Source: Escherichia coli
GTDB lineage: Bacteria; Pseudomonadota; Gammaproteobacteria; Enterobacterales; Enterobacteriaceae
Direction: 5' to 3' (one strand)
NCBI RefSeq assembly: GCF_003334335.1
Contig: NZ_QOWQ01000218.1
DNA: 332 nucleotides
The number at the start of each line of letters is the position of its first letter. The first letter of the stretch is position 1. Below, piece by piece: positions 1-332 of this stretch. Made by a program: the position numbers and the translations under genes. The notes beneath the pieces were generated by a model, which had not been told where the DNA came from, did not search any database, and saw nothing but the letters and a program-made list of their open reading frames with translations.

Positions 1-332
1 GAAGAGCACGCCATTGTCCAGGTGGAAGAAATGCAGGCGGTGAATGCCGTGCTGTATGGCAAATACACCATGGAAGGAGACCAGTTCGAGAAAATTGAGG
101 TTGATTTTGGCAGATCGACGAAGAATAACATCATACAGGGTAGCGGTAAGGAGTGGTCAAAACAGGACCGTGACACGTTCGACCCGACATATGATATCGA
201 CCTTTTCTGTGATCAGGCCAGCGGTCTTGTGAATATTGCCATCATGGACGGTACCGTCTGGCGTCTGCTGAATGGCTTTAAGCTGTTCCGCGAAAAACTG
301 GATACCCGTCGCGGCTCAAATTCACAACTCGA
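1..332 (+). CDS. Phage major capsid protein, lambda gpE-like (Phage_cap_E family); internal fragment, truncated at both ends by the window
   Basis: Seen in sequence: frame +1 is open across all 110 complete codons with no stop. Third codon positions are mostly G/C and Leu is mainly CTG, as in enterobacterial coding DNA. Established knowledge: the translation aligns without gaps to the middle portion of lambda gpE as I recall it, with matching blocks QVEEMQAV, GKYTM, EWSK, DP, ASG, VNI and a near-identical EKLDTRRGSNS(E/Q)L block at the C-terminal end of the window. Inference: the full gene should extend several hundred bp beyond both window edges. The gene symbol is left blank because this is a homolog, not lambda E itself. 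Confidence 0.9.

Follow-up and report, generated by a model that had tools for sequence, protein, structure and literature searches.

Uneven similarity to lambda gpE along a phage-21-type major capsid gene fragment of Escherichia coli

The window considered here, that is, the whole stretch of 332 nucleotides that was analysed, encodes part of a capsid protein whose likeness to gpE of phage lambda is uneven: two segments of low identity lie among blocks that are nearly the same in both proteins. A sequence-only reading had regarded this pattern as a sign of diversifying pressure, acting on surface loops or on contacts with a decoration protein, and of a distinct lambdoid capsid lineage. The question is whether low identity to lambda gpE marks fast-evolving, exposed parts of the protein or has another origin. 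Very probably the uneven similarity arises because sites evolve at different rates in two orthologues that separated long ago and are both under purifying selection. Low identity to one reference does not mark a hypervariable region; segment 2 of the window is diagnostic of its clade and yet constrained. The divergence pattern is ordinary and, as first stated, matters little.

Frame +1 of the window is uninterrupted throughout and corresponds to residues 119-228 of the 342-aa major capsid protein of Escherichia phage PhiR5_1, where the gene "major capsid protein E" matches the window DNA at every position. The same complete nucleotide identity (100%) is found in at least 16 E. coli chromosomes among the matches listed, and the match to phage 21 gene 7 and to genes close to it is 92.8-93.1%, with 92.8% over the window for phage 21 itself. 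At the protein level, phage 21 gp7 and the full protein are 96% identical (329/342). The PF03864 (Phage_cap_E) profile aligns residues 5-341 of the full-length protein to model positions 1-329 (E=4.8e-66), and the peptide encoded by the window aligns with positions 119-228 of phrog_2353, "major head protein" (E=1.4e-54). In PhiR5_1, the neighbours follow the order terminase, W, portal, protease/scaffold, decoration protein D, E, FI, and FII, which is the canonical lambdoid head module. The decoration gene directly upstream of E encodes a 115-aa D protein of the SHP type; its identity is 93% to phage 21 SHP and, over 95 aligned residues, 58% to lambda gpD. Near-identity to gp7 and an SHP-type gene adjoining upstream identify the locus as a phage-21-type capsid module. 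Phage 21 gene 7 itself (M81255; OL657228 CPT_21_08) has, like the window's gene, a product of 342 aa and protease/scaffold, SHP, FI, and FII genes as neighbours. The source of the window is in all likelihood a temperate lambdoid phage, or a prophage, of E. coli that carries a phage-21-type capsid gene.

Such capsids are common. The 21-type was matched in 1925 and the lambda-type in 3299 of 5426 complete E. coli genomes, and only 108/1570 E. coli records are at least 95% identical to the window. The family sample of full-length proteins comprised 57 21-type members (62-100% identical to the query), 15 lambda-type members, and 71 distant relatives (27-47%). In this sample, the 21 clade is discrete from the lambda clade, with zero intermediates. 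The distinct lambdoid capsid lineage is thus real, and it is the already-described lineage of phage 21 gp7. The gene, the 21 lineage, and its relation to lambda gpE have long been known, and the window is ordinary and already annotated. Its other content is modest. The sole other open reading frame, of 62 aa in frame +2 (nt 44-232), falls within the capsid frame and is without support. A scan of the window against Rfam gave a chance-level match only (E=0.7), a promoter scan gave a single weak candidate at nt 107-134, about what shuffled sequence yields, and terminator and repeat scans gave no terminator and no meaningful repeats. The features of the window are the following, with structural elements taken from an AlphaFold2 (AF2) model.

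1-332, plus strand: fragment from the interior of a phage-21-type major capsid protein gene (Pfam Phage_cap_E), homologous to lambda gene E, spanning codons 119-228 and two further nt.
1-57, plus strand: C-terminal half of the spine helix, aa 119-137, with block A at nt 16-42 (AF2 helix 104-137).
61-105, plus strand: A-domain beta-hairpin, aa 139-153 (AF2 strands 139-144 and 147-153).
78-210, with scattered differences to 255, plus strand: recombinational cassette with the hypervariable loop aa 148-172 (nt 88-162) as its core.
The window's variable stretch, aa 154-180: long loop in the AF2 model.
187-216, plus strand: segment 1, predicted amphipathic A-domain helix, aa 181-190 (AF2 helix 181-189), with a variable polar face.
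238-291, plus strand: segment 2, predicted end of an A-domain beta-strand (aa 197-200) and kinked helix (aa 202-217), conserved within each clade.
292-324, plus strand: block B, EKLDTRRGSNS, aa 216-226, helix end and loop, 11/11 identical to lambda.

Lambda gpE (NP_040587; PDB 7VI9, 7SJ5, 8K39) belongs to the same family and fold. Its residues 119-228 align without gaps with the window at 67/110 identities (61%), and the whole proteins share 208/342 (61%). It differs in having one residue fewer near position 259, in its partner, which is gpD and not SHP, and in 35 clade-fixed differences. The lambda sequence used in the sequence-only reading was accurate, and its residue-level comparison holds on alignment. 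Block A reads VQVEEMQAV against AQVEEMQAV in lambda (8/9 identical), and block B is identical throughout. Segment 1 (TYDIDLFCDQ against TDDIEAYALN) keeps 3/10 residues, with Cys188 opposite Ala188 of lambda, and segment 2 (AIMDGTVWRLLNGFKLFR against IVFDPKGWALFRSFKAVK) keeps 5/18. The patchiness itself does not exceed chance. When the vector of matches and mismatches to lambda was shuffled 20,000 times, a 10-aa stretch with at most 3 identities was present in 82% of window shuffles, and an 18-aa stretch with at most 5 identities in 6.6% of window shuffles and in 31% when the whole protein was shuffled. Nor is significance reached by the runs test on window matches (P=0.22) or by the longest identical run (11 residues, P=0.13). 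The N-arm (residues ~31-50) diverges from lambda as much as the two segments do. Patchiness in one pairwise comparison is therefore unconfirmed, because such stretches are expected by chance at 61% identity.

The synonymous sites are more informative. Between PhiR5_1 E and lambda E, dS is ~1.2 over the whole gene, and synonymous sites are near saturation throughout. Against lambda, blocks A and B have pS values of 0.94 and 0.58, and residues 216-236 one of 0.67; the divergent parts show the same level, and nucleotide identity to lambda is at most 84% in every 30-codon window. Synonymous sites are thus near saturation even inside the protein-identical blocks, and therefore these blocks are held by purifying selection and are not recently shared DNA. 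The divergence of the lambda and 21 capsids is old, without recent recombination between them. Values of dN/dS were obtained by simple parsimony counting on 14 21-type sequences with the recombinant cassette included. The whole-gene value is 0.12, and every region is below 1. Block A has a dN/dS of 0 among these genes, and block B one of 0.04, with entropies of 0.44 in the 21 clade and 0.19 in the lambda clade.

The stretch DTRRGSNS..ETAVKDLG, which begins in block B (window 304-324, aa 220-226) and continues in L001 at 6304-6354, is the most conserved part between lambda and 21. It also has the lowest model confidence of the A-domain, with a pLDDT of 59-65 for residues 221-240; residues 221-230, in the region of block B, have a monomer pLDDT of 59 despite their conservation. 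The model suggests that this stretch may be a loop that gains order only when contacts form in the assembled capsomer.

Segment 2 differs strongly from lambda and varies little within either clade. Its entropy is 0.67 in the 21 clade (protein mean 0.73) and 0.27 in the lambda clade (protein mean 0.33), the 39th percentile in both. The 14 E. coli and phage 21-type genes show 2 nonsynonymous and 16 synonymous changes there; the nonsynonymous count is at the 11th percentile, and the dN/dS of 0.04 equals that of block B. Even relatives only 63% identical overall still share MDG..WR.LN.FK.FREKLDTRRGS. Segment 2 is thus strongly constrained in each lineage though clade-diagnostic, its diagnostic residues being M200, G202, L208, N209, and F214, and hypervariability of this segment finds no confirmation. 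These five positions (M200F, G202P, L208F, N209R, and F214V) belong to the 35 clade-fixed differences, but their density (5 in 18 aa) is nonsignificant protein-wide (permutation P=0.85), and the N-arm has 7 in 18. Segment 2 differs from lambda by old fixed substitutions.

The nature of these substitutions gives some hint of their structural sense. Hydrophobic-for-hydrophobic swaps account for 6/13 of the segment 2 differences from lambda versus 32/113 elsewhere; about half of the segment 2 changes are hydrophobic size swaps (M/F, L/F, F/V, A/I, and L/A). Such swaps fit a helix repacked against the A-domain sheet, and we infer this repacking from residue types and helix periodicity, the differences from lambda in segment 2 having no favoured helix face.

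Segment 1 behaves differently. Its entropy is 0.88 in the 21 clade (76th percentile) and 0.40 in the lambda clade (73rd). The ratio of nonsynonymous to synonymous changes (N:S) is 11:8, against 118:334 for the remainder of the gene (Fisher P=0.006, uncorrected and post hoc), and its nonsynonymous count is at the 96th percentile. The dN/dS of 0.28 among the 14 genes is the highest regional value in the gene and well under 1. The view of segment 1 as a fast-evolving surface loop thus keeps its first part in a weakened form: turnover is moderately raised, but dN/dS stays below 1, and the element is a predicted helix, not a loop. The variable positions 182, 186, and 190 give a variability moment at 173 degrees from the hydrophobic moment. 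The hydrophobic face (I184, Y/F187, and C/A188) is kept, and the polar face changes more freely. Cys188 has a weighted frequency of 0.48 in the 21 clade. Since it alternates with Ser or Ala in other members, it has no special role such as in a disulfide. Phage 21 gp7 differs in the window by four substitutions (I163T, Y182H, F187Y, and Q190L), three of them in segment 1. Of the 14 21-type genes sampled, two, PhiR5_1 and L004, have the form with Y182 and F187 (TYDIDLFCDQ), and the remaining 12, phage 21 included, have H182 and Y187.

The direction of change was polarised with residue frequencies from the 71 distant relatives as outgroup, with no rooted ancestral reconstruction. The outgroup was retrieved with a 21-type query, so that any bias would oppose a result in favour of the lambda state. 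Within segments 1 and 2, the outgroup prefers the lambda residue at 14/17 clade-consensus differences; in the rest of the protein, the lambda:21 preference is 36:65, and the contrast with 14:3 has a Fisher P of 0.0004 for regions chosen post hoc and uncorrected. Substitutions in residues 181-215 thus look like changes fixed on the 21 stem and conserved since then, and those of segment 2 would mostly have been gained on the 21 branch.

The AF2 model, built from a 143-sequence alignment, has a pLDDT of 79.6 and a pTM of 0.79. Foldseek superposes it on lambda gpE (7sj5/7vi9) with a TM of 0.87-0.88 and on 3bqw with 0.87. The HK97 fold is recognised in the predicted model by the spine helix at 104-137, the A-domain elements, and this superposition on solved capsids. 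The elements predicted around the two segments are a helix at 181-189, a strand at 197-200, and helices at 202-209 and 212-217, with a pLDDT of ~90 over 181-220. The order of secondary-structure elements in the model places both segments in the axial (A) domain, of which they would be regular elements. The idea that they are surface loops fails on the same model, which gives a helix for segment 1 and a strand plus helix for segment 2.

The capsid of an E. coli CFT073 prophage (PDB 3BQW) belongs to the same family at 46% identity and is a deeper branch. Its segments (YDIELYADQA and IM..VWRTLRSFKKFRE) are nearer to those of the window than lambda's are, and the conserved DTRRGSNS block is altered to DLSRGSES. 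The YSD1 and Chi capsids (PDB 6XGQ, 8VJI) share the lambda/chi-like HK97 fold (TM 0.71-0.75) at only 25-28% identity; their trimeric decoration protein at the 3-fold axes has a tulip fold, with an extra N-terminal hook. In the lambda and homologous YSD1 capsids, the 3-fold axes are occupied by the decoration trimer, which binds the E-loop, the N-arm, and the clamp loops, and the A-domain packs at the middle of the capsomer (PMC5701804, PMC7385642). By analogy with these capsids, a decoration-protein contact for segments 1 and 2 is unlikely.

The preferred reading has to be weighed against three others. Diversifying selection on surface loops or on contacts with gpD or SHP would draw on segment 1, which tops the regional dN/dS, has the nonsynonymous excess described above, and carries its variable sites on the polar face. 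Contact with the decoration protein would also agree with the difference between the 21 and lambda decoration proteins (58% identity over 95 aa) and with a passage in PMC7602432, citing Wendt & Feiss 2004, according to which SHP replaces gpD on lambda capsids only partly. Such partial substitution implies co-adaptation somewhere in the capsid protein. However, dN/dS speaks against diversifying pressure, as it lies below 1 in every region (0.04 in segment 2, 0.28 in segment 1, and 0.12 for the whole gene), and few parts of the protein vary less than segment 2 within each clade. Both segments are helix or strand at a pLDDT of ~90 in the model, where loops would be needed, and in lambda and YSD1 the 3-fold axes hold the decoration trimer, whereas the A-domain lies at the capsomer centre. 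Within the 21 clade, the alleles of D do not track capsid variants; between the 21 and lambda clades, capsid and decoration protein both differ, which confounds any comparison of co-variation. Diversifying selection on these segments is therefore very improbable.

Pure chance, that is, random scatter at 61% identity without biological meaning, has more in its favour, as the permutation scans, the runs test, and the clustering of fixed differences are all nonsignificant. It is nonetheless unlikely: the invariant blocks persist despite near-saturated synonymous sites, which means that site rates differ, the polarity in the segments is opposite to that in the rest of the protein (14:3 versus 36:65, P=0.0004), and segment 1 has a nonsynonymous excess. 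According to a further explanation, the gene is a recombinational mosaic of lambda-type and 21-type DNA, in which the near-identical blocks were recently exchanged and the divergent segments were not. Lambdoid genomes are famously mosaic, and this gene does contain a genuine intragenic cassette, though within the 21 lineage. Against such exchange, pS in blocks A and B and over residues 216-236 is as in the divergent parts, no 30-codon window exceeds 84% nucleotide identity to lambda, and the sampled clades are without intermediates. A lambda/21 mosaic has next to no probability, and recombination as the origin of the identical blocks is ruled out by the near-saturated synonymous sites. Rate differences among sites of two old, constrained orthologues thus very probably account for the pattern.

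The most variable part of the window is neither segment 1 nor segment 2. In both clades, the highest variability falls on aa 148-178 (nt ~88-180). Residues 148-172 reach the 90th entropy percentile in the 21 clade and the 96th in the lambda clade, the entropy of residues 155-178 is 1.14 and 0.75, respectively, and distant relatives have a 3-residue indel at 174-176. Trp170 (window 154-156), in the middle of this most variable loop, is invariant in all 143 aligned members; only three columns are invariant family-wide, Trp170 together with P56 and K79.

This loop, which follows the A-domain beta-hairpin, is the core of a recombinational cassette of ~130-180 nt that exists as two deeply diverged alleles. 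Among 13 genes compared, 6 (e.g., PhiR12_1, L006-L009, and L012) are nearly identical to the window's gene except at gene nt 432-609, which correspond to window nt 78-255, with the dense part at 78-210. R5 and L008, for example, differ at 46 positions in 178 nt (26%) in the cassette versus 24 in 851 nt (2.8%) outside. Inside the cassette, pS is 0.92-0.98 and pN 0.17-0.26; outside, they are 0.08-0.12 and 0.004-0.006. The window carries allele A, with the loop QFEKIEVDFGRSTKNNI(I/T)QGSGKEWSKQD. Allele B, found in PhiR12-type prophages and in ~860-950/5426 E. coli genomes, has the loop QFDTVEVDFGRSEGNNIEQADGKKWSEQD, with several charge changes relative to allele A. The hypervariable loop undergoes intragenic recombination among otherwise near-identical 21-type genes, and this cassette at nt ~78-210 is the only mildly new item in the window.

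The loop allele is not tied to a particular decoration gene: the D genes of PhiR5_1, which has allele A, and L006, which has allele B, are identical. A donor of allele B was not found among phage records, which fall into two classes only, at ≥99% or at 76-78.5% identity, the latter including Gifsy-1. It is rather improbable that the cassette is a balanced polymorphism of an exposed capsid loop, kept by capsid-sensing immunity or another surface interaction, and not a neutral import. Capsid monomers are known to set off immunity in E. coli, and it has been reported that E. coli Avs8 binds monomeric lambda gpE directly and is a sequence-tolerant recogniser of the capsid fold (PMC12236752). Because Avs8 recognises the fold in this tolerant manner, its link to the loop alleles is speculative. 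The loop aa 148-172 could suit engineering, display insertions, and the typing of 21-type prophages, and it is a candidate for studies of capsid-sensing immunity.

Some minor observations concern related genes. A third, more distant 21-clade capsid gene of E. coli is present in strain STEC383 (NZ_CP091026, L013 97-432 and 501-1529), with 77% nucleotide and about 83% amino acid identity. Its loop sequence is neither allele A nor allele B, and the paired decoration protein is shorter (111 aa). Several longer predicted proteins fuse the capsid domain with FI (PF14000), the decoration protein (PF02924), or tail protein U (PF06141), and one entry, a "Major head protein" of 517 aa, is assigned to Bacillus thuringiensis. 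The fusions and the Bacillus thuringiensis entry are probably artefacts of frameshift, gene calling, or contamination. Finally, E. coli O157:H7 chromosomes (e.g., NZ_CP016755 1985228-1985478) carry only the first 251 nt of a 21-type gene, at 98.4% identity; this piece adjoins a gene annotated "phage tail protein" and looks like the remnant of a prophage deletion.
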